Source: a virus (taxonomy: Duplodnaviria; Heunggongvirae; Uroviricota; Caudoviricetes). From it: a stretch of 8,899 nucleotides of DNA. The DNA is taken from IMG/VR virus record IMGVR_UViG_2600255005_000007, positions 1 to 8,899 of that record, one strand, 5' to 3'. Below the pieces are notes generated by a model, which was given only the letters and a program-made list of their open reading frames with translations, ran no database searches and was not told where the DNA came from. Both the position numbers and the translations under genes were made by a program. Below are positions 1 to 8,899 of this stretch, piece by piece; the first letter of the stretch is position 1, and the number at the start of each line of letters is the position of its first letter.

Positions 1-480
1 GTGATAAAGCGTGTTTTGCAGGCTGCGTTCGATGTCATCAACGCTGCGCCGCTGGCTGGCAGAGAGCGAGGCAATAAACGCTTCGGCTTTTTCCGGCGAC
101 TGCTGGCGATAAAGATTCGCCAGCCCGCGCACGGCGTTAGTGTTGCTACTGTCCATACGCAGCGTCTGCTGGTAATAGCGTTCAGCGGCGGGGTAATCTT
201 TGCGCGCCATCGCCACATCGCCCAGCCCCAGCACCGCATAGCTGTCGGCGTTATCGACATTGCGCGCCTGCTGGAACAGGCGTTCTGCCCGGTCGGGATT
301 ATTGGCTTTCAGCGCAGCATCGCCCTGCTGGATCGCCAGCCAGTAGCGATTCACCTTCAGCAGACTGTTCCATTTGTCGTTGTTGCTGCTGTGCGGATCC
401 AGCGCGAGGGCTTTTTCCAGATTCGCCACCGCATTAGCACGATCGCCATTCTGAGAATACGCCTGCCCCAGCGCCCCCGG
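1..480 (-). pseudogene. bcsC: Cellulose synthase operon protein C (BcsC) TPR-region fragment; 5' part of the gene missing (replaced by inserted DNA at about 480), 3' part continues beyond the window start
   Basis: Reverse-complement translation of 1-477 reads GALGQAYSQNGDRANAVANLEKALALDPHSSNNDKWNSLLKVNRYWLAIQQGDAALKANNPDRAERLFQQARNVDNADSYAVLGLGDVAMARKDYPAAERYYQQTLRMDSSNTNAVRGLANLYRQQSPEKAEAFIASLSASQRRSVDDIERSLQNTLYH, which I recognise as the TPR region of enterobacterial BcsC. Similarity stops at 478-483 and an in-frame stop follows at 496-498. Absent from the ORF track because the frame runs off the window edge. Confidence 0.7.
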
Positions 481-2088
481 AACGCGGCGAAAACATCAGA
501 GACGAATGCAGGTAACAGCGCGAAAGCGGCAGCTTCTTCAAAAACAGCCGCACAAAATGCAGCAACAGCGGCAGAACATTCAGAGACAAATGCCCGTGCG
601 TCAGAGGAAGCCTCCGCAGACAGTGAAGAGGCTTCCCGCCGTAATGCAGAGTCAGCCGCTGAAAATGCCGGAATCGCCACCACAAAAGCGCGGGAGGCCG
701 CAGCAGACGCAACAAAGGCCGGGCAGAAAAAGGATGAGGCTCTGTCGGCAGCGACACGAGCAGAAAAGGCGGCAGACCGCGCAGAAGCCGCAGCGGAAGT
801 GACTGCAGAGCCCTATGCGAATATAGTGCCGCCGCTGCCTGATGTATGGATACCGTTTAACGATACACTGGATATGATTACGGGGTTTTCGCCATCATAT
901 AAAAAGATTGTTATTGGTGACGATGAAATAACAATGCCAGGCGACAAGATTGTTAAGTTTAAACGTGCTTCAACAGCAACGTATATTAATAAGTCCGGCC
1001 AACTCAAGCTTGCTGAAGTTGATGAACCGCGATTTGAGCGCGATGGCTTATTGATTGAAGGACAGAGGACAAATTATCTGAGGAACTCAAATAAACCAGA
1101 CTCATGGACTGTTCATTCCGCACTGAATAAAACATTTGGCACTGATAAACAGGGGTTCAATTATGCCACGGTGACACCCACGGAAAGTATAGTGGGAACA
1201 ACAGGTGGCTATACTGTGCATGGTGTGGTTGCAGCAGACAGATTCCCGCTGGCAAGTGGTGAATGTTTCACTTTTTCGTGCCGGGTTAAAGGCGCTAAAG
1301 CACGATGCAGGTTAAGAGTTTCAGTTATTATTGGTGGAACAGATACATTCTCTGCTGACTCTTATCTTGATCTGGATACCCGGATCGCAACAGTAAGCGG
1401 TAATACATCCCTTATAACAGCCAAAGCTGAACAACAGGGCGAGTGGACCTACTATGAGGCCACTTATACAGCTAATACGGACATTGATACCGTTAACTGT
1501 GCTTTTTATATGACAAATAAAATAAGTAATGAGCCATTCTATGATGACTCAACATTAACCATGACGACGCCGCAAATTGAACTGGGCAATACGGCATCGT
1601 CATTTATTGTAACTACAATGCCAACAACACGCGCAAGTGATGTGGTTACTATCCCATCGCAGAATAACCTGTCAACACGGCCTTTTACGGTATTGTGCGA
1701 AGTAAGCAGGAACTGGAGTACACCGCCCAATGTTGCGCCAAGGATATTTGATGTTGGAGGGCACAGTATTGATGATAATTATTTATCGCTGGGGTTTGTT
1801 TCAACAGGAAAGATAAGCGCCAACGTAGGAATGGTTCAGCCACAAATTTCCTCAGATGGAGAAAGGTTCATTGTGGGTGTGAGAGCTAAATCTGATTTAT
1901 CAGTAAATGCAATATGCAGTGGTAATTATACAACAAACCTTAATGGTAAAATATTTGGAGTTACAGCAACATCGTACCGGTTTGGTGGGCAGACCGCAGC
2001 AGGAACGCGTCATTTGTTTGGACACATCAGAAATTTCAGAGTCTGGTTTAAAGAATTAAATGACAGGCAAATCAAGGAGGCAGTATGA
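481..2088 (+). CDS. Phage side tail fibre protein, shaft repeats plus C-terminal receptor-binding region; 5'-truncated and fused in frame to antisense bcsC sequence (ORF 1..2088)
   Basis: From about 490 the + frame gives Ser/Ala/Glu-rich SETNA-type repeats (SETNAGNSAKAAASSKTAAQNAATAAEHSETNARASEEASADSEEASRRNAESAAEN...) typical of lambdoid side-tail-fibre shafts, then about 430 aa ending in FGHIRNFRVWFKELNDRQIKE (2017-2085), which resembles the C-terminal motif of concanavalin-A/LamG-like lectin domains. No N-terminal tail-attachment domain is present. The first 160 codons of the ORF are antisense bcsC and not fibre sequence. Confidence 0.7.
   Translation, partial: NAAKTSETNAGNSAKAAASSKTAAQNAATAAEHSETNARASEEASADSEEASRRNAESAAENAGIATTKAREAAADATKAGQKKDEALSAATRAEKAADRAEAAAEVTAEPYANIVPPLPDVWIPFNDTLDMITGFSPSYKKIVIGDDEITMPGDKIVKFKRASTATYINKSGQLKLAEVDEPRFERDGLLIEGQRTNYLRNSNKPDSWTVHSALNKTFGTDKQGFNYATVTPTESIVGTTGGYTVHGVVAADRFPLASGECFTFSCRVKGAKARCRLRVSVIIGGTDTFSADSYLDLDTRIATVSGNTSLITAKAEQQGEWTYYEATYTANTDIDTVNCAFYMTNKISNEPFYDDSTLTMTTPQIELGNTASSFIVTTMPTTRASDVVTIPSQNNLSTRPFTVLCEVSRNWSTPPNVAPRIFDVGGHSIDDNYLSLGFVSTGKISANVGMVQPQISSDGERFIVGVRAKSDLSVNAICSGNYTTNLNGKIFGVTATSYRFGGQTAAGTRHLFGHIRNFRVWFKELNDRQIKEAV
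2074..2080 (+). promoter_or_regulatory. Shine-Dalgarno AAGGAGG for ORF 2085..2363
   Basis: AAGGAGG 4 nt upstream of ATG 2085; the ATG overlaps the fibre stop (ATGA 2085-2088), suggesting translational coupling. Confidence 0.55.
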
Positions 2089-2363
2089 AAGATTTAACTT
2101 TGAAATTTCCTGGTAACAGAGAGTTTAAATCCTTCCTGTCATCTCTTGACTGGGAGGAAGATGAAGACCTCCAGAATAAACTGTTAGTCGATGAAATTGG
2201 TTTCACCTACACAGAAACAGGGGTAACTGAAGAGGGAGAACCTGTCTGTATCCGGAATAACGGTTATTTTGTCAACATTCGCATTCTTGATGACTTGTTT
2301 GATGTTTCTGTATTCTCTGATTATGTCGTGGAGCTGGAAACACCGCTTCGGGAATGGAGCTGA
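2085..2363 (+). CDS. Hypothetical small acidic protein (92 aa) coupled to the tail fibre gene
   Basis: Complete ORF with strong SD and start overlapping the upstream stop. Asp/Glu-rich. No similarity to classic Tfa tail-fibre assembly proteins that I can recognise. Confidence 0.55.
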   Translation: MKDLTLKFPGNREFKSFLSSLDWEEDEDLQNKLLVDEIGFTYTETGVTEEGEPVCIRNNGYFVNIRILDDLFDVSVFSDYVVELETPLREWS

Positions 2364-2370
2364 AAGGAGG
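2364..2370 (+). promoter_or_regulatory. Shine-Dalgarno AAGGAGG for ORF 2376..2669
   Basis: AAGGAGG followed by 5 nt spacer and ATG 2376. Confidence 0.55.
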
Positions 2371-2375
2371 AAATA

Positions 2376-2669
2376 ATGGATATAAGCCCCTTACTTCATG
2401 CACTTTGTGCTGTGGCTGCGCAGATACTGGTTGGTCTTTTTACCGGAAACTGGGCTTACGGAGCGATAGCCGGTTGTACGTTCTTCATTGCGCGTGAACA
2501 TACCCAGGCAGAATATCGCTGGATTGAAATGTTCGGGCATGGCAAGCGAATGAATATGCCGTGGTGGGGCGGATTTGATCCGCGCGCGTGGGATGTGGCA
2601 AGCCTGATGGATTTTGCTGTGCCGGTGGTGGCGTGTCTGCTGGTCTGGCTGTTGGTTAATCGTGGGTGA
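2376..2669 (+). CDS. Hypothetical small membrane protein (97 aa, two predicted hydrophobic helices)
   Basis: Strong SD; hydrophobic stretches LLHALCAVAAQILVGLFTGNWAYGAIAGCTFFIA and LMDFAVPVVACLLVWLLV; lies 12 nt after the previous ORF. Confidence 0.5.
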   Translation: MDISPLLHALCAVAAQILVGLFTGNWAYGAIAGCTFFIAREHTQAEYRWIEMFGHGKRMNMPWWGGFDPRAWDVASLMDFAVPVVACLLVWLLVNRG

Positions 2670-2700
2670 AAAAAGGTGGGCTGTATATGCAACGGAGGAA

Positions 2701-3033
2701 GAAACCCGGGAGAAAGCGCGGATACAGAAACCGGGTGCCTGTCACATCTTCCGGCACTCGATGGCAACGCAGATGCTGGACAACGGCGCAGACACGCGGC
2801 ACATCCAGGCGATCCTCGGCCATGAGAAGCTGGAGACGACGCAGATCTACACGCGGGTAGCCATCGGTCACTTACAGGAAGTTCACGCGCTGACGCACCC
2901 GGAAGAGCAGGACGAGACGTGGACGGATCGGCACGTTGCGGATGCGGTGGCAGAGCCGCAGACGCGCCGGGAGCGTAATCACGCAGAGATGGAGCGGGCG
3001 CTGGTCAGCAGGAAACGCCGCCGGAGACGCTGA
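2701..3033 (+). pseudogene. Tyrosine recombinase (phage integrase / XerCD-like) C-terminal fragment, 5'-truncated
   Basis: Translation ETREKARIQKPGACHIFRHSMATQMLDNGADTRHIQAILGHEKLETTQIYTRVAIGHLQEVHALTHP matches the C-terminal catalytic box of tyrosine recombinases (H-x-x-R-H, LGH, TTQIYT with the catalytic Tyr). No N-terminal or core-binding domain lies upstream, where fibre-associated ORFs sit instead. The reported ORF 2614..3033 begins inside the previous gene in another frame. Confidence 0.55.
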
Positions 3034-3993
3034 TGCAGGCCGGAAGCGTGATCATCGCCGGACTGCCTGAAAAGTTAGCGGGCGATCCCTGTAAGGCCGT
3101 GGGGTGAGGTGCAGGGCAGACAACCGCCTTCCCTGGCGGTTGACTGCCCCCTGCCAGCGGAGTGCGCGGGGGTAAATGCCGTTCGCCCCGTGGAGGCAGG
3201 CGTGTCCCATGCGGCCACGGCGCACGGGGCAAACGTCATTCAACATAATGCGGGGGATTATGCGCACTCTCGCCGGGTGGCAACGGCGGCGAACCCGACC
3301 CGCTGTGCGCGGCTCGTGTTCGCACAATCCGCATTATGTCTTGCGCCCCCGCGTTCAGCCCCTTAACCAGTGCCACGCGCAGCAGCTCGCTGGCGCTCGC
3401 TCCTGCCGTCTCAGCGGCGGTGTCCTTCCTCAGCGCCGCAGTCGCCGCCATCCCTGGCGGCTCCGGTGCCGTTCTGCGGCGGCGTCATCGTGTGGCAGTC
3501 AGTCAGAAAAGGGTGTCGGCCTGGCGGCCTCCGCTTGTAAGGGCTTTATGCCCGCCCGGCGTCGTCTGGCTGCGGCGGCTCGTGCCGCGCAAAAAGGCCG
3601 CGCGTCACTCGTTCCCGCCTCGCCAGCTTCCGCTGCCCGCCCCGGTCCGGTGTGGTCATGCAAAGGCCAGCTCCGGTCAGGCAGCGGTGCCACAGAGCGC
3701 CGTTCCGTCGCTTGCGGACTCTCTGCCGCCCGCACCCGCAGACCCCGCGCCGTGGCCCCGCCATGCCGCCGGAGGCGGCCTGGCGGCCCCCCGTCACGGG
3801 TTGCCGGAAACGGACTTAGTGGAAAGCGGAATGACAGGTTCGTGGCGGTGGTGATATGGTGAGCGGGCGTGAAAACGCGCGTCGGGAAAGCCGGGTTAAC
3901 GTGCTGTTAAATAATTAAAAGGTGATAGCCGTGAAGCCAGAAACGGCGCGGGCGGTAGCGTGTTAAAAAGTATGACCCGCACCGGATCGTCCC

Positions 3994-4401
3994 GATGACC
4001 CGATAGGGCTGAGAGGCGGATTAAACTTATACCAATACGCGCCTAATCCAGTAAACTGGATCGATCCTTTGGGTTTGAAATGTGGGCAACCTGAATGGAC
4101 AAATCATGGATACAAACATTTTCCTCCAAAAAACAAATCATGGAAGGATATAATTAAATCAACAAAATCAGGCCCGGCAAAATATTCTCCAGATATTGAT
4201 ATTAAAACGTTGGAATACGATGTTTTTAATACAGGCACACCTGTTACGAACGGTAAACCATGGAAAGTAAAAGATATGGGAAAAGTTATTGGGGCCAGTG
4301 AGGGTAAAGAATCTCAATGGGTTCGAGTTGAACTTAGCGGTGGGACAATACATGGACATCCTATATCAATCGATGAATTCCGAAGGCTAACAACATCATG
4401 A
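3994..4401 (+). CDS. Orphan Rhs C-terminal toxin module 1 (core-end [27 protein letters not shown] at 3997-4077 plus about 105 aa toxin domain of unassigned family); no start codon, no upstream core
   Basis: Frame opens after TGA 3973-3975. Conserved Rhs core-end peptide, then [15 protein letters not shown]...[19 protein letters not shown]. First in-frame ATG lies deep inside the domain; the ORF track start at 4069 is a TTG. Confidence 0.65.
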
Positions 4402-4691
4402 ACATTGATTTCTTAGGAAAAAAAGGGAATATAGTTTTTAATGACTTCTCCCTGAAACAAAGCATCCCTCTTAATGAACAGCGAGATGAACTTAAGGAAG
4501 ATATGCTCCAGGTTGAATATCCTGGTGGGTATCTTTTGGATGTTGGGTGGCGACCATCTTTTGATATAAATGGGAAGTTTTATATTTGTTTAATAAAGGA
4601 TTTTGATTGGGATTATCCCATTTATAATGGTTCTGCGAAAGATATTGTCTCATTATTATTTGAAATTAACCAAGCTATAAATAAACTTTAA
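4398..4691 (+). CDS. Putative immunity protein for Rhs-CT 1 (97 aa)
   Basis: ATG overlaps toxin stop (ATGA 4398-4401); AT-rich small ORF directly downstream of a polymorphic toxin domain; followed by a terminator hairpin. Confidence 0.6.
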
Positions 4692-4707
4692 ATAAACTTT
4701 AAAAAAA

Positions 4708-4746
4708 CTGGGAAGAAAATTAAATCTTCCCGGCTTTTTATTATTT
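4708..4746. terminator. Bidirectional intrinsic terminator between convergent immunity gene 1 and SymE-like gene 1
   Basis: Stem CTGGGAAGA (4708-4716) / TCTTCCCGG (4725-4733) with 8 nt loop, followed by CTTTTTATTATTT on + strand and preceded by AAAAAAA (a T-tract on the minus strand). Confidence 0.55.
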
Positions 4747-5006
4747 AACTCTCGTTCAGCACACTAAACATCCCGTTCCGCATCCCCTTAACCGCCTGTT
4801 TGACCTGGTAAAGTTCCCTGCGCAGTTCCTGTACTTCGTTGTTATCCGCTAGCAGGATCAGGCAACCTTCCGAGATCTTCACGGTAACGCCCGTGCCGAT
4901 CTCAAATCCCGCTTCTCTCAGCCATTTGGCGCTGATTTTGATCACCGGCGTGTCGCTTCGGTTGGGCAGATAGCCCACGGTACAGTGGCGCTGTGTTTTG
5001 GAAATG
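4719..5006. repeat. Direct repeat copy A (about 288 bp), carrying part of the terminator and the SymE-like ORF
   Basis: 4719-5006 aligns with 7311-7599 at roughly 97 percent identity by eye (a handful of substitutions and one extra T). Similarity ends abruptly after ...GTTTTGGAAATG. Confidence 0.8.
4745..4978 (-). CDS. SymE-family (type I toxin SymE-like, AbrB/SpoVT-fold) protein, probably 5'-truncated
   Basis: Translation GYLPNRSDTPVIKISAKWLREAGFEIGTGVTVKISEGCLILLADNNEVQELRRELYQVKQ aligns with the conserved core of E. coli SymE (TV.Y...P.I...WL..AGF..GT.V.VK..EGC..L) as I recall it. Starts at GTG with no SD; frame is open upstream to a stop at 5063-5065 with no ATG. Confidence 0.6.
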   Translation of the reverse strand: MGYLPNRSDTPVIKISAKWLREAGFEIGTGVTVKISEGCLILLADNNEVQELRRELYQVKQAVKGMRNGMFSVLNES

Positions 5007-5171
5007 ATATTTTTGTATTTAACCTGCTGATTAGATAGTAAAATAAACTTCGTGCAGATAGCTTACTTTGTCAGGGTGTGGCGGTAGCGTATGAACTATG
5101 ACGTGATGGTTTTAGTGATTTATAGACGAAACTGACAGTACGATCCGGACTTCGATTAGATTGCGCGATTT

Positions 5172-5621
5172 GACCCGATAGGGCTGGCGGGGGGGCTGAA
5201 TCTTTATCAGTATGCGCCGAATCCGTTAAACTGGATCGATCCGCTTGGATTAAGTTGCTCTAGTGATGCAAAAAAATTATCTGGTAATTTAGGATCAGCA
5301 CCAAGTAGTCACTATCGACCACATCATATGGTTATGTCTAATTCCAGCGATGTGCGTATGCGGTGGTTACGTAGAAGGATGGATCGGTTAGGTATAGATA
5401 TAAACGATTCCAAAAATGGTGTATGGCTACCCAAAAACTCTGATTATCGGTTACCGGGGACAAAAGCTACTGCTCATGGTGGTGAAGGTGTACATGGAAA
5501 TGCATATAAACAACATGTGTGGGATACGTTGAAAAATGCAAGAACAAAAGCTGATTTTGAAGCAGGGCTTGCGCAACTTAAAGTAGAGCTAAGTACTGGC
5601 AAAACGTTTCCTGTCCAATAA
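5172..5621 (+). CDS. Orphan Rhs C-terminal toxin module 2 (core-end [27 protein letters not shown] at 5172-5252 plus HNH/AHH-type nuclease-like domain); no start codon at 5' end
   Basis: Frame opens after TAG 5157-5159. Domain contains PHHMV (HH at 5322-5327), NGVWLP (5415-5432) and [14 protein letters not shown], matching the His-His...Asn...His layout of AHH-family HNH-fold toxins. The ORF track start at 5328 is the Met inside the HHM motif. Confidence 0.65.
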
Positions 5622-5625
5622 GGAG
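5620..5625 (+). promoter_or_regulatory. Shine-Dalgarno AAGGAG for immunity gene 2
   Basis: AAGGAG, 9 nt spacer, ATG 5635; the SD overlaps the toxin stop TAA 5619-5621. Confidence 0.5.
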
Positions 5626-5634
5626 TATGATCAC

Positions 5635-6252
5635 ATGAAAGATTTTCTGAAAAGTTTATATGAAGATTACAATGGAAAGTATTCGGAACTGATAGAACAG
5701 ATGAACGGAGAAAAGGCTACTTGTAGATGGGGGTATGGTGTTATGCCTGCCTTCTCTATAGAACCTTATGCATCCGAGCTTTTAGGTCATAAACCGGGAC
5801 GAATGTTGAAAAATAACTCAATCGCAGGAGTAAATAAACAATGCTATTATGTTGATGAACAAAACAGGATAATAGAAGGAATTACATACGCCAGCCATCG
5901 TAAGAAAGATAATGAATGGATTGTGTATAGAAATTTTTATATTTACCAAGAAAATACCATTCTTGGGCTTTTGTATAGTAGTACATTTGAAGATAGTAAA
6001 AACACAGGATTGAATAAGATTGTATTTATAAGCATTGATAATAAATTAATAAATAATAAGTATACTTTCATGTATGATGGGGAGTATTCTGAGGTAGATT
6101 ATATTTATAATAAAGATAAAATAATAAAAATAGACCAAAGGGTATGGTCTTCGTTTTATTTTGAACGCACTTATCTGATAGAGTCAAATGATCCATTGAT
6201 TATTAATGAATACTTAGAAAATAGTGGGAACATCAGGATCTACCCTACTTAA
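5635..6252 (+). CDS. Putative immunity protein for Rhs-CT 2 (205 aa)
   Basis: Complete ORF with good SD immediately after the toxin domain; visibly AT-rich relative to flanking DNA. Confidence 0.6.
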   Translation: MKDFLKSLYEDYNGKYSELIEQMNGEKATCRWGYGVMPAFSIEPYASELLGHKPGRMLKNNSIAGVNKQCYYVDEQNRIIEGITYASHRKKDNEWIVYRNFYIYQENTILGLLYSSTFEDSKNTGLNKIVFISIDNKLINNKYTFMYDGEYSEVDYIYNKDKIIKIDQRVWSSFYFERTYLIESNDPLIINEYLENSGNIRIYPT

Positions 6253-6357
6253 TTTATCAAAGTAAGAGACTAATATATGGACTATGATGCGGCTGTTTCA
6301 GGGATATGCGATTGAAGCCAGTAGTATGATCCTGCGATGGGGTAGATTCACCGTCCT

Positions 6358-6801
6358 GATCCGATAGGGCTGGCGGGGGGAATAAACCTCTATGCTTATG
6401 CGCCGAATCCAGTAAACCACATTGATCCTCTTGGGCTATCTTGTGGAAAGGTTGGTAACGTTGAATATCGTAATTTTGAGCGTTCTCCGGGAATGTTTTC
6501 TCGGTTATTAAAGAATAAACGTGACTTTGATTATGTTGCCAGATATAACATCTCAAGATATAAAGCTACATTGAGAAAAAATAATCCGGATGGTTTTGGT
6601 AATATTAGCCATTATTTCGATGGTGTAGATGCAAAAGGAAATAAAGTCGTTATTGAGGTGGCGAATACAGGGCATAAATCTTCAAGCGGTGGTTTTGAGC
6701 CTCCACATATTAAAATTCAAATAAAAGACGCTGATAACAAAGTGATACATAATGCCAAATATTTTTTGGAAGATGATATATATAGAATTACGGGCAAATA
6801 A
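6358..6801 (+). CDS. Orphan Rhs C-terminal toxin module 3 (core-end [27 protein letters not shown] at 6358-6438 plus about 120 aa toxin domain of unassigned family); no start codon at 5' end
   Basis: Frame opens after TAG 6343-6345. Domain SCGKVGNVEYRNFERSPGMFSRLLKNKRDFDYVARYNISRYKATLRKNNPDGFGNISHYFDGVDAKGNKVVIEVANTGHKSSSGGFEPPHIKIQIKDADNKVIHNAKYFLEDDIYRITGK. The ORF track start at 6493 is an internal Met. Confidence 0.65.
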   Translation, partial: DPIGLAGGINLYAYAPNPVNHIDPLGLSCGKVGNVEYRNFERSPGMFSRLLKNKRDFDYVARYNISRYKATLRKNNPDGFGNISHYFDGVDAKGNKVVIEVANTGHKSSSGGFEPPHIKIQIKDADNKVIHNAKYFLEDDIYRITGK

Positions 6802-7260
6802 ATGAAAAATATTAGAGAGTTAAATAATGCAGAATTCTCCGGGCTTATTAACAATGCTTTACCATTCTTACATATTAATCCTATAAGCGAAGCTGTTTGT
6901 ATTCATGCAGAAGCTTATAAAAGTGGTATTGATGTTAACTATATCCGTTGCAACGTTGACTGGGAGGGGTTTTCTTCTTTAACTGAAGCGTTGGAAACGT
7001 TATACCATGAATTATTTAAAGATGGTATTCCATCAGGCGAATTGTTGTTTTTTTACCCGTTTGATAGAACAAAGAAAGGGAATTATGGTGTTATACTGGA
7101 ATCATCTCAGCTATTAGATTTCTTAATAAAAGAGCATTTGAAGATTTATCCTGAATGTTTTAATGTAGAAATGTGTAGCTTCGGTTTTTATTTTATAGAT
7201 CACGAAATATTTTACGGCATGGAACATCCTGATTTTTTATATAGTTTCTGTGTAAGATAA
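6802..7260 (+). CDS. Putative immunity protein for Rhs-CT 3 (152 aa)
   Basis: ATG immediately follows the toxin stop (TAA-ATG at 6799-6804); AT-rich; followed by a terminator hairpin. Confidence 0.6.
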   Translation: MKNIRELNNAEFSGLINNALPFLHINPISEAVCIHAEAYKSGIDVNYIRCNVDWEGFSSLTEALETLYHELFKDGIPSGELLFFYPFDRTKKGNYGVILESSQLLDFLIKEHLKIYPECFNVEMCSFGFYFIDHEIFYGMEHPDFLYSFCVR

Positions 7261-7296
7261 TTAATAAAGTGAGGAGTATATTTCTCTTTCTTAATC

Positions 7297-7335
7297 GCCG
7301 GGAAAGGTAGATTAAATCTTCCCGGCTTTTTTATT
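7297..7335 (+). terminator. Intrinsic terminator after immunity gene 3
   Basis: Perfect 8 bp stem GCCGGGAA (7297-7304) / TTCCCGGC (7319-7326) followed by TTTTTTATT. No T-tract in the minus-strand direction. Confidence 0.55.
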
Positions 7336-7599
7336 ATTTAACGTTCGTTCAGCACACTAAACATCCCGTCCCGCATCCCCTTAACAGCCTGTTTAACCTG
7401 ATAAAGTTCCCTGCGCAGTTCCTGTACTTCGTTGTTATCCGCTAGCAGGATCAGGCAACCTTCCGAGATCTTCACGGTAACGCCCGTGCCGATCTCAAAT
7501 CCCGCTTCTCTCAGCCATTTGGCGCTGATTTTGATCACCGGCGTGTCGCTGCGGTTGGGCAGATAGCCCACGGTACAGTGGCGCTGTGTTTTGGAAATG
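7311..7599. repeat. Direct repeat copy B (about 289 bp), partner of 4719-5006
   Basis: See copy A. The right end abuts GC-rich primase-like sequence at 7599/7600. Confidence 0.8.
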
Positions 7600-7619
7600 G
7601 TGGGCCGCACTGCTGGCAC
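7338..7619 (-). CDS. SymE-family toxin-like protein, copy 2; the N-terminal 10 codons come from unrelated sequence beyond the repeat boundary
   Basis: Near-identical to copy 1 over the shared part (ISKTQRHCTVGYLPNRSDTPVIKISAKWLREAGFEIGTGVTVKISEGCLILLADNNEVQELRRELYQVKQAVKGMRDGMFSVLNER). The ORF start at 7619 is a GTG lying antisense inside the primase-like region, with no SD. Confidence 0.55.
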   Translation of the reverse strand: MPAVRPTISKTQRHCTVGYLPNRSDTPVIKISAKWLREAGFEIGTGVTVKISEGCLILLADNNEVQELRRELYQVKQAVKGMRDGMFSVLNER

Positions 7620-8899
7620 ACGGCGTCAGGCAGGTACTGATCGCCTACGACAACGATCCGGCGGGCAATGAGGCGGCGGTGAAACTGGCTTCTTCCTTAG
7701 CCGCTTCCGGGATCGCCACGTTCCGCGTACTGTTCCCGGCGGGCATGGATGCGAACGGTTATCTGTGCAGTGTGGCAGAGCCGGAACAGGCGTTCAGTCT
7801 GTTGCTGGATGGCGCGGTGCCCATGAGTGACCTGGCCGATGCGGAGAGTATCGCGCCGCAGGCCAGCGCGGAGCCTGCACACCTGACTTCATTAGCTGCC
7901 GGGGTTGCGGTCTTACCCGCAGCCGCCGCGCCTGCACCGGGCGTCAGCGTGGAAACCCTGGCCGATGGCGAACTGATGGTAGCCTTACCCGGCGAACGCT
8001 GGACTATCAGGGGCGTAAGCCGCAAACCGAACGTCGCCGCGATGAAGGTCAATGCGCAGGTGCTGGACACCAACAGCGGCGTGGTGTTCGCTGATGCGGT
8101 GGATATGATGAGCGCCCGCAGCCGTTCCGGTTATGCGCGGGCCGCAGCGGCAGAGCTTGGGCTTGCCGAAGGCGACCTGCGCCGTTCGCTGGGTAAGGTG
8201 CTGCTGGCGCTGGAGCACTGGCAGGCGGCACCGGAGCCGGAGAGCGTCGCCCCGGAGATGACGCCGGAAGATCGGGAGGCGGCGCTGGATCTGCTGCGCG
8301 ACGAGTGTCTTGCCGGGCGCATCGCTTCTGATATGGCGGCGTGTGGCGTGGTGGGTGAGTCCACCAACCTGACGGCGGCGTATCTGGCGGCGGTGTCACG
8401 CAAACTGGAGCGCCCGCTTGCCGTTCTCATCCAGTCGTCGAGCGCGGCGGGTAAGTCCAGCTTAATGGATGCGGTGCTCAATCTGATCCCGCCAGAGGAA
8501 CGGCTGCAATACAGCGCCATGACCGGGCAGAGCCTGTTCTACCTCGGCGAAACCAACCTGCAACACAAGATCCTCGCCATCGCAGAAGAAGAAGGTGTGC
8601 GCCAGGCGGCGTATGCGCTGAAACTGTTGCAATCAGACGGGGAACTGACCATCGCCAGTACGGGCAAGGACGACGCCAGCGGCAACCTGGTCACCAAACA
8701 GTACACGGTGAAAGGCCCGGTGATGCTGATGCTGACCACCACGGCGATCGACGTCGATGAAGAACTGTTAAACCGCTGCCTGGTGCTGACGGTGAACGAG
8801 TCGCGGGAGCAGACGGAGGCCGAACTGCTCTTTAACAATTTATCAGACAATCTGTGTGGGCACTCGAAGATACGGATTCTTAACGTCCTCGGACGATAA
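7600..8899 (+). CDS. Toprim-domain primase-like protein with downstream P-loop-like region, N-terminally truncated at the repeat junction (integrative/conjugative-element type replication or mobilisation protein)
   Basis: VLIAYDNDPAGNEAAVKL resembles the Toprim DxD motif region; a Walker-A-like SSSAAGKSSL follows after an Ala/Pro-rich linker. GC-rich coding sequence with good third-position GC bias. The conserved Toprim Glu region expected upstream is missing. The reported start at 7586 is a GTG inside the SymE repeat. Confidence 0.55.

Follow-up and report, generated by a model that had tools for sequence, protein, structure and literature searches.

Orphan toxin modules and their junctions

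The stretch of DNA analysed here (the window) comprises 8,899 nucleotides (nt), positions 1 to 8,899 of the IMG/VR virus record IMGVR_UViG_2600255005_000007, assigned to the Caudoviricetes. It carries three successive orphan Rhs toxin modules (O1, O2 and O3), and the present work concerns the junctions that precede them, the stop codons within these junctions, and an integrase/primase element whose right end forms one of them. In all three orphans, DPIGL...DPLGL (the linker) stands at the start of the variable toxin C-terminus, and the toxin is directly followed by a putative immunity open reading frame (ORF) that co-occurs with the same toxin in Escherichia coli; no family match to any of the three ORFs was found in Pfam or NCBIfam. 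The profiles TIGR03696 and NF041261 match the last 27 positions of the Rhs core, and the TIGR03696 tail lies on all three linkers. Upstream in frame, the orphans are without a YD-repeat shell, a PAAR domain or a translation start, and no ATG, GTG or TTG occurs between the last in-frame stop, which lies 4-7 codons upstream, and DPIGL. The coordinates of the features are collected in Table 1.

Translation of the junctions reproduced the arrangement that a sequence-only reading of this DNA had reported. A TAG (5157-5159) followed by ATT (5160-5162) precedes the DPIGL of O2 (5172-5186), and a TAG (6343-6345) followed by ATT (6346-6348) precedes that of O3 (6358-6372); in both orphans ATT is codon -4 and TAG codon -5, counted from DPIGL. 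The in-frame translation is ...MNYDVMVLVIYRRN-stop-QYDPDFD-stop-IARF-DPIGL for O2 and MDYDAAVSGICD-stop-SQ-stop-YDPAMG-stop-IHRP-DPIGL for O3, with further stops at 5133-5135 in O2 (TGA, codon -13) and at 6313-6315 (TGA, -15) and 6322-6324 (TAG, -12) in O3. The YDP...stop of O1 was likewise recovered, in a frame one nucleotide off its DPIGL (3997-4011). The canonical core ends with ...YYDPxxG(R/Q)(F/Y)xxxDPIGL, and TAG-ATT takes the place of the R/Q-F/Y codons. With the main Rhs end of E. coli A37 (...DPLGL) as template, the TAG-ATT of O2 and O3 falls where GRF has its R and F codons.

Over the 81 nt that precede DPIGL, O2 and O3 agree at 47 of 81 positions in an ungapped alignment (58%, z=6.4 against shuffles), and the two remnants have in common the ATG at -27, YD at -25/-24, a stop at -12/-13 and TAG-ATT at -5/-4. 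Because the O2 and O3 junctions are homologous, the shared hexamer goes beyond chance, and the position of the stop, for which the sequence-only reading had left coincidence as an alternative, is not coincidental. To judge from this alignment and from the relatives described below, the TAG-ATT of O2 and O3 is identical by descent and comes from a widespread junction family.

The relation of the junctions to the Rhs core is much weaker. The O2 and O3 remnants are only 42-52% identical at the DNA level to E. coli and Pantoea core ends (z about 1-2), and the O1 junction has no significant similarity to these core ends, so that recognisable homology to a main core was not found for any of the three. 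Core-like matches in O2 and O3 are confined to YD at -25/-24, Y at -17, YDP at -11 to -9 and G at -6. Neither O2 nor O3 shows significant similarity to the O1 junction (z<1.5), which resembles its own relatives alone; in the closest of these its YDP reads CDP, YDL or CDL, and is not conserved. Assigning the O1 YDP to the YD at -25/-24 or to the YDP at -11 to -9 of an O2-type remnant was tried and gave an ambiguous result, the tripeptide being too short and not conserved in relatives. A core vestige in every orphan, as originally proposed, is therefore plausible for O2 and O3, in very decayed form, and not demonstrable for O1. The proposal of a shared junction left by one formation mechanism is supported in a restricted form: O2 and O3 are copies of one family, and O1, although it has the leader motif described below, belongs to a different sub-type.

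Table 1. Positions of the features in the window and the basis of each assignment
Feature	Position	Strand	Basis
Xer-like tyrosine recombinase gene, 3' part (~110 codons), last gene of element copy A	2706..3033	+	Pfam Phage_integrase; collinear with xerC of E. coli EC10 and R12
GC-rich non-coding spacer of the element	3034..3900	+	92-94% identical in E. coli and E. ruysiae copies
O1 leader-like motif GTGCTGTTAAAT...GGTGATAGCCGTG...GGCGGTAGCGT (GGCGGTAGCGT at 3951-3961)	3901..3961	+	Motif search and alignment; 93-97% identical in five element right ends
O1 out-of-frame YDP...stop, within the conserved element right end	3971..4006	+	Translation
GACCCGATAGGGCT, DPIGL codons of O1; att-like boundary ending the element-derived sequence	3997..4010	+	Copies identical up to this 14-15-mer; left ends begin there
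Orphan 1: DPIGL...DPLGL linker and toxin domain (KCGQPEW...)	3997..4401	+	TIGR03696 tail
Putative immunity gene of orphan 1	4398..4691	+	ORF; homologue follows the same toxin in E. coli
symE-like gene copy 1, 5' end diverged; part of a right-end module symE-leader-vestige	4745..5005	-	Pfam SymE_toxin; tblastn
O2 junction leader GTGCAGATAGC..TTTGTCAGGGTGTGGCGGTAGCGTATGAA	5039..5095	+	nhmmer E=5e-14; also upstream of vgrG/rhsE in E. coli
O2 decayed 27-codon core remnant	5091..5171	+	Alignment; translation
Orphan 2: DPIGL...DPLGL linker and AHH-family nuclease toxin	5172..5621	+	Pfam AHH E=1e-10
Putative immunity gene of orphan 2 (205 aa)	5635..6252	+	ORF; kept with toxin and downstream junction in E. 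coli A37
O3 junction: diverged partial leader (6253-6276) and 27-codon remnant (6277-6357)	6253..6357	+	90.5% identical in 5 E. coli genomes, with a different toxin there
Orphan 3: DPIGL...DPLGL linker and toxin of no assigned family; cargo (left) end of element copy D	6358..6801	+	TIGR03696 tail
Putative immunity gene of orphan 3	6802..7260	+	ORF
symE-like gene copy 2	7338..7619	-	Pfam SymE_toxin E=8e-15
DnaG-type primase gene, internal part (Toprim and P-loop region)	7620..8821	+	Pfam Toprim; from residue ~288 on, protein 93-95% identical to the primase of the E. coli element

A leader-plus-remnant junction family

DPIGL sites were surveyed in one genome per species with the pattern GAYCCGATAGGGCT-N4-GGNGG..., which is blind to the upstream sequence and covered at least 120 loci. 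After four E. coli loci had been set aside, 132 DPIGL sites were obtained, and the window adds three. Among the matches listed, to which the counts of this survey refer, 68 sites have at least 150 open core codons upstream, and 41 are orphan-like, the nearest in-frame stop lying 1-149 codons upstream. A stop at -5 was found in four of the 41 (TAA-ATA, TAA-TAC, TAA-GAT and TAG-ATT), and at 25% of all sites the codon at -5 is CAG, CAA or CGA, which a single mutation can turn into a stop. In many orphans the remnant is open throughout, as with stop-LATRLHYNLFRYYDPESGRFTQP-DPIGL in E. coli A37, and the A37 homologue of the O2 AHH toxin shows an intact RYYDPESGRFTQP vestige where the window has stops. 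Such open-vestige orphans are presumably silent for want of a start codon alone. The exact string GAYCCGATAGGGCT is present in at least 120 species, among them Pseudomonas, Vibrio, Methylobacter, deltaproteobacterial, Gemmatimonadales and Kiritimatiellia representatives, in a sample selected by the pattern itself. Its codons ATA (Ile) and GGG (Gly) are rare in E. coli, and its wide spread may reflect a constraint on the nucleotides themselves, for instance as a recombination site.

Alignment of the closed junctions revealed a common leader, not derived from the core, directly upstream of codon -27. It follows the pattern GTGCAGAT(A/T-rich)TATCA(G/A)GGT..GGCGGTAGCGT-ATG, with a short form GTGCAGAT...TATCAGGGT..GGCGGTAGCGT, and downstream of it lies a decayed core remnant of ~27 codons with several stops. 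An nhmmer profile of the leader found matches in Citrobacter, Entomohabitans, Serratia (two species), Brenneria, Scandinavium, Mangrovibacter and some metagenome contigs. The leader-plus-remnant family as a whole includes Escherichia, Citrobacter, Entomohabitans, Mangrovibacter, Scandinavium, Serratia and Brenneria, so that comparison of orphan junctions across strains and genera shows the same O2/O3-type junction recurring in at least six enterobacterial genera. A broad metagenome pattern, GTGCAGAT-N(8-26)-GGCGGTAGC, returned true leaders in 5 of 120 loci and is too loose. Nine members have GGCGGTAGCGT at a distance of 92 nt from DPIGL; in four others the distance is 102 nt, and a single member has 67 nt. 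In the window, GGCGGTAGCGT lies 46 nt upstream of DPIGL in O1 and 92 nt upstream in O2, and O3 has a diverged form of the leader motif (about 26/38 identity by hand count). The difference of 46 nt between O1 and the 92-nt type is not a multiple of three, which explains the frame offset of O1. The leader motif appears to be undescribed in the literature that we could search.

These distributions bear on the idea that the junctions decayed independently and that the matching place of TAG is a coincidence. Position -5 is indeed prone to stops, as the share of CAG, CAA and CGA codons indicates, and an independent G-stop-Y case exists in Citrobacter. However, the hexamer TAGATT needs at least two changes from any intact core, the same junction is found in other genera, and the identity of 58% over 81 nt (z=6.4) extends far beyond the hexamer. 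We regard coincidence as extremely improbable, and on the strength of the O2/O3 alignment it is effectively refuted.

The 11 family members with Ile at -4 show how the codon at -5 varies. Seven have a stop (O2 and O3 of the window, E. coli A37 and EC10, Mangrovibacter and two Brenneria), two have TGG, and GAG and TAC occur once each; each of these sense codons is one step from TAG. Other family members keep CAG-TTT (intact GQF). Meanwhile, a stop at -12, -13 or -15 is present in all of the ~20 leader-family junctions.

As its second alternative, the sequence-only reading had suggested that the stops are maintained by selection, which would keep displaced toxins untranslated until they are reloaded. 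Some details could be seen in this light: every one of the ~20 junctions has at least one in-frame stop between ATG -27 and DPIGL, always including that at -12, -13 or -15; in Entomohabitans TAC replaces the TAG at -5, yet a new TGA has arisen three codons downstream; and five sequences keep TAG-ATT unchanged between flanking codons that differ widely. However, four of the 11 Ile(-4) members have a sense codon at -5, and the stop at -5 is therefore not protected. In the survey, a stop at -5 occurs in four of 41 orphan-like sites and TAG-ATT in one, and the vestige of many orphans stays open over 15-28 codons, free of stops. Since two or three stops are present in these junctions, a closed frame persists neutrally and is the expectation without selection, which speaks for descent rather than demonstrable selection. 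In addition, the putative cognate immunity gene is kept downstream, so that leaky expression would probably not be lethal, and Salmonella orphan toxins are produced from internal promoters and a CTG start (PMC7043789). Selection for silence is thus unsupported, and we consider it improbable. The Salmonella internal starts also mean that a stop upstream of DPIGL is no guarantee of silence. The stops themselves are ordinary. Orphan Rhs tips that are silent and degenerate have been described since 2009.

The function of the leader is a separate question. It might act as a promoter or operator of the orphan module, mainly of the immunity gene, with the remnant as an untranslated 5' leader. The leader is conserved across genera while the remnant decays, and the same leader lies ~280-400 nt upstream of a vgrG or rhsE annotation (the yncH-rhsE locus) in 4608 of 5426 E. 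coli genomes (85%), which suggests a promoter or regulatory role. In O2, TTGTCA-16 nt-TATGAA can be picked out by eye at 5068-5095, and internal promoters near the junction of core and C-terminus are documented in Salmonella. On the other hand, a consensus scan calls no promoter there, and the total of promoter-like sites is below shuffle expectation. The putative -10 element is poorly conserved (TATGAA, TTTACA, TGATTA, TGTCTG), and it is the would-be spacer GGCGGTAGCGT that is most conserved. RNAalifold found no conserved RNA fold in the leader on either strand, and no Rfam family covers it. We therefore rate a mainly transcriptional role as doubtful; it would be compatible with a role of the junctions in toxin exchange, and the leader may possibly be a recombinase accessory site or a promoter/operator.

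Copies of the leader at the yncH-rhsE/vgrG locus lie in unannotated DNA (L003 855-907, L004 849-900, L245/L246 4001-4054); in EC10 and R12 the leader is about 250 nt upstream of the first annotated ORF, and in other strains about 280-360 nt before rhsE/vgrG. Three further assignments were tried and set aside. TAGATT as a -10 box has no consistent -35 at 16-19 nt across members by eye, nor does the consensus scan call a promoter at that place; for translation to restart at the ATT that follows TAG, a consistent Shine-Dalgarno sequence is missing by eye; and a dif-like XerC/D site in the leader is speculative, with a half-site spacing that varies from 2 to 7 nt. The string GTGCAGATAA resembles the XerC arm of dif.

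An integrase/primase element at the DPIGL codons

Comparison with other genomes indicates what travels together. Positions 5171-6410 of the window are 92% identical to E. coli A37, and this match runs from the O2 DPIGL through the AHH toxin and the 205-aa ORF, takes in leader and remnant of O3 and stops ~50 nt past the O3 DPIGL; beyond it, A37 has a different toxin. In the same way, positions 4703-5242 (the terminator-like hairpin, symE, the O2 leader and remnant and 70 nt of the linker) are 92% identical to Entomohabitans teleogrylli (L045), where different toxins lie on both sides. The junction moves with the upstream module and not with the toxin behind it, so the unit of exchange extends from one DPIGL to the next. 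On these alignments, the leader plus remnant is the right end of the exchange unit. Similarity to E. coli begins at the DPIGL of the orphan, at 3997/4000 for O1 and at 5171 for O2. The O1 toxin is joined elsewhere to a full-length Rhs (E. coli R12) or to a long core fragment (PapRG-06-5).

The O1 junction is the right end (at least 93% identical) of a ~7-kb element, which contains in order a cargo toxin, its immunity gene, symE, a Cro/CI helix-turn-helix (HTH) gene, a DnaG-type primase, an Xer-like integrase and a non-coding GC-rich spacer. The primase (987 aa) has a CHC2 zinc finger, the DnaG core, Toprim and a P-loop region, and the recombinase (351 aa), encoded near one end, has Phage_integrase and SAM-like domains. 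The 5' part of the recombinase gene is absent from the window; the full-length homologue matches NCBIfam NF002331 'XerC' with 527 bits. The collinear E. coli locus reads vgrG, DcrB-like gene, rhs, immunity gene, symE (-), HTH gene (-), primase, xerC, ~0.9 kb of GC-rich DNA, a short 'Rhs' pseudogene, toxin and immunity gene. Over the 196 nt that precede the O1 DPIGL, identity with the DNA downstream of xerC amounts to 93-97% in EC10 (two copies), R12 and E. ruysiae, and the O1 right end also aligns closely in EC77 (two copies). With the window copy included, seven toxins stand behind an O1-type right end (KCGQ..., SGVGIPY..., KSCFSS..., NGHCAF..., ATVDVTF..., CKTDVEN... and SKTHTGY...). After orphan 3, the order immunity gene, symE and primase is that of the E. 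coli elements.

The boundaries of the element can be read from the strains with two copies. On the left, the EC10 copies are 100% identical from the G of GACCCGATAGGGCT; upstream of this point one is preceded by a double-stop remnant and the other by an intact core fragment. On the right, they are ~97% identical up to GACCCGATAGGGCTG and then diverge abruptly, the flanks being unrelated. The short direct repeat GACCCGATAGGGCT(G) is present at both ends of both EC10 copies, and in EC77 the left and right attachment sites (attL and attR) share GACCCGATAGGGCTGAGAGGCGGG, 24 nt. Of 5426 complete E. coli genomes, 56 contain the right end, with 194 occurrences in all (median 4 per genome), and the element occupies two Rhs loci, ansP-yddH and ybfA-ybgA. 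Outside E. coli, a primase and an Xer-like integrase share one 8-kb stretch with a Rhs DPIGL site in Buttiauxella and in Gallionella and Desulfobacteraceae metagenome-assembled genomes; a primase alone was found in such an 8-kb stretch in Serratia silvae, and an integrase alone in an Enterobacter. A search for the element right end in viral contigs gave no match. In about a quarter of the 120 sampled loci, representing many genera, symE-like genes share one 8-kb stretch with the Rhs DPIGL site, usually on the opposite strand and after the immunity gene. To our knowledge, so tight an association of symE with Rhs has not been reported.

In favour of insertion by the integrase are the short att-like repeats, flanks that are unrelated, a recombinase gene whose position is constant, and the copy number. 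From these features we infer that the Xer-like integrase catalyses insertion. The leader would be its accessory site. An integrase-bearing element at DPIGL codons appears undescribed: in the literature we could cover, which is incomplete, searches on Rhs with primase, XerC, symE and integrase turned up no description of the element or of the leader.

Several observations weigh against this interpretation. Besides the copies of the leader upstream of vgrG or rhsE, the spacing between the leader motif and DPIGL varies (46, 67, 92 and 102 nt), a variation that is hard to square with a rigid recombinase site. The window does not contain the main rhs gene of its genome; the collinear E. coli loci have one. 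For the two insertions tested with composite queries, no uninterrupted empty target site was found in the 5426 E. coli genomes, and no attP-type circular junction (expected as ...CGTCCCGAT-GACCCGATAGGGCT-cargo linker or ...GGATCGTCCCGAT-GACCCGATAGGGCT-linker/toxin) was seen. In Shigella flexneri, the circular sequence NZ_CP055112.1 (8758 bp, ~8.76 kb), deposited as a complete plasmid, corresponds to exactly one period of the EC10 tandem array and contains primase, xerC, spacer, right-end junction, ISEc1, Rhs core fragment, toxin, immunity, symE and HTH. It is either a real recombination-derived circle, excised and replicating, or an assembly artefact, and it has no attP. Finally, the breakpoints are not always at the 14-mer: the similarity between the window and A37 runs ~50 nt into the linker, and the KCGQ toxin occurs with three different linkers. 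Both observations would be compatible with homologous recombination, or with gene conversion, within the 81-nt linker, which is conserved.

The last points lead to the alternative that RecA-dependent homologous recombination alone builds the array, via circular intermediates, and that the integrase and primase are passengers or serve their own maintenance. Breakpoints that vary within the DPIGL...DPLGL linker and a mosaic linker for the same toxin would be expected, and reloading of Salmonella orphans by recombination with the main rhs has been reported (Koskiniemi 2014, as relayed in PMC5727410). The 8.76-kb circle, being a tandem repeat unit, is also what recombination between direct repeats should give. 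However, attL and attR share 14-24 nt alone, between unrelated flanks. Such a length is short for efficient RecA recombination. The decayed remnants, 42-52% identical to real cores, cannot supply the homology for RecA. Moreover, every autonomous copy has its recombinase gene at the same distance from the junction, and the element is multicopy at separate loci. We consider homologous recombination unlikely to be the sole builder of the array, although it keeps an appreciable chance, and prefer insertion by the integrase.

The remaining features of the window concern its edges and the DNA between the modules. Only 2706-8821 is collinear with E. coli Rhs/element loci; the integrase fragment abuts unrelated DNA with a large ORF (1-2088) and small ORFs up to 2669, and the last ~80 nt are not primase. 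Copy D lacks the HTH gene as well as the first ~280 codons of the primase, and symE copy 2 is fused to mid-primase. The joins at the edges of 2706-8821 and at ~7600-7620 are either real deletions or rearrangements, or chimeras made at repeats during assembly. Together, the two symE regions make up a direct repeat of ~300 nt with 98.8% amino-acid identity. Antisense to symE (4575-5008 and 7057-7601, + strand), Rfam gives sub-threshold matches to Ssr1 (260-265 bits, gathering 820) and isrA (~32-34 bits), and these candidate antisense RNAs may be SymR-like. A hairpin with a T-run, terminator-like on both strands, lies at 4708-4733, where it separates the orphan 1 immunity gene from the 3' end of symE, and a similar hairpin sequence can be seen by eye at ~7300-7330, after the orphan 3 immunity gene. 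In the spacer, the stretch 3534-3833 is most conserved, with 4-7 variable sites per 100 nt across five copies. Spacer substitutions are without codon periodicity (49/47/44) and are accompanied by indels; the conserved stretch may serve the primase as an origin of replication, or may be a non-coding RNA.

Proposed stacked insertion of toxin cassettes and comparison with known systems

Taken together, the junctions resemble scars left by the right ends of mobile toxin/immunity cassettes that target DPIGL, and one of these cassettes is an integrase/primase element. The homology of the junctions, the distribution of their family, and the gene content, boundaries and copy number of the element are direct observations, from which we propose that the orphan array arises by successive insertion at the DPIGL of an rhs gene; we think this probable, though well short of assured. 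Each cassette would start at GAYCCGATAGGGCT and carry the linker, a toxin, an immunity gene and often symE, to which autonomous cassettes would add the HTH regulator, the DnaG-type primase and the Xer-like integrase. Its right end would consist of the conserved leader motif and a short core remnant. A new cassette would enter at DPIGL and bring the newcomer toxin in frame with the Rhs core, and the old toxin would be displaced downstream, behind the right end of the newcomer, so that the newest cassette would always lie nearest to the core. According to this scheme, the O1 junction would be the right end of an integrase/primase element, and the O2 and O3 junctions would be right ends of smaller derivatives without integrase, primase and HTH genes. 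The stops of O2 and O3 would have been inherited from the ancestor of the right-end family, as neutral relics of a decayed core fragment. The window would then read, in order, as the end of element A (integrase fragment, spacer and leader), the O1 cassette B (toxin, immunity gene, symE, leader and remnant), the O2 cassette C (AHH toxin, immunity gene, leader and remnant), and O3 as the cargo end of element D (toxin, immunity gene, symE and primase), where B and C look derived, having lost the HTH, primase and integrase genes.

Silencing of orphans and C-terminal displacement were already known, and the junctions matter mainly as pointers to the way in which tips are exchanged. If the integrase inserts the cassettes, the swapping of toxins in a major class of type VI secretion system effectors would be programmed and transferable, rather than a matter of occasional homologous recombination. 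On the same condition, the insertion would be directly testable, and the conserved leader would provide a sequence handle for finding cassettes genome-wide. More broadly, Rhs toxin diversification in Enterobacterales, and perhaps more widely, might be driven by small replicative integrative elements with their cassette derivatives, which would insert site-specifically at DPIGL, deliver toxin and immunity genes in frame and leave a scar, in an integron-like manner and with the leader as accessory site. They would also supply what the C-terminal displacement model has lacked, a 'circular intermediate with an integrase'. This wider proposal is tentative, and we would give it somewhat less than an even chance.

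Previous studies have described Rhs C-terminal displacement arrays (Jackson 2009, PMC2935791; Poole 2011, PMC3150448; Koskiniemi 2014), which resemble the present array in their DPxGL toxin/immunity pairs without shell or start. Jackson et al. 2009 (PMC2935791) reported tips displaced downstream by inserted tips, some with frameshifts or premature stops, found that the core regions of associated and dissociated sequences in a locus are always identical, and postulated a circular intermediate integrated by homologous recombination. Silent orphan tips and displacement by inserted tips were also described by Poole et al. 2011 (PMC3150448). In contrast to these arrays, the remnants here are at most ~27 decayed codons behind a non-core leader, and one junction ends an integrase/primase element. 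Starsta et al. 2020 (PMC7043789) found internal promoters and a CTG start for Salmonella Rhs C-termini, which together with RhsI are expressed internally like toxin-antitoxin modules; the likeness lies in regulatory potential just upstream of DPxGL and in orphans that are not necessarily silent. However, P2 of Salmonella is a promoter within intact core sequence, at 89 nt upstream of the motif, whereas the window orphans have a non-core leader.

Acquired interbacterial defence loci also carry the label 'rAID'. Polyimmunity loci (Zhang 2012, PMC3482391) have XerC/D-type recombinase genes beside arrays of immunity genes and toxin fragments; they are immunity islands away from any delivery gene, whereas the modules described here carry full toxin domains, placed so that they could be fused to an Rhs core. 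Rhs-associated integrase-like genes were noted in bee-gut bacteria by Steele et al. 2017, who left their role open. Integrative elements with tyrosine recombinases and short att cores, among them Xer-dependent elements (IMEX) and integron cassettes, share with the present system an Xer-like recombinase near one end, direct end repeats of 14-24 bp, multiple copies, tandem arrays and apparently non-autonomous cassette derivatives with a common end motif. One difference is that no dif-like 11-6-11 site was recognised by eye here. Another lies in the target, which here is situated inside a protein-coding motif, so that each insertion would swap the C-terminal domain of the host protein in frame.

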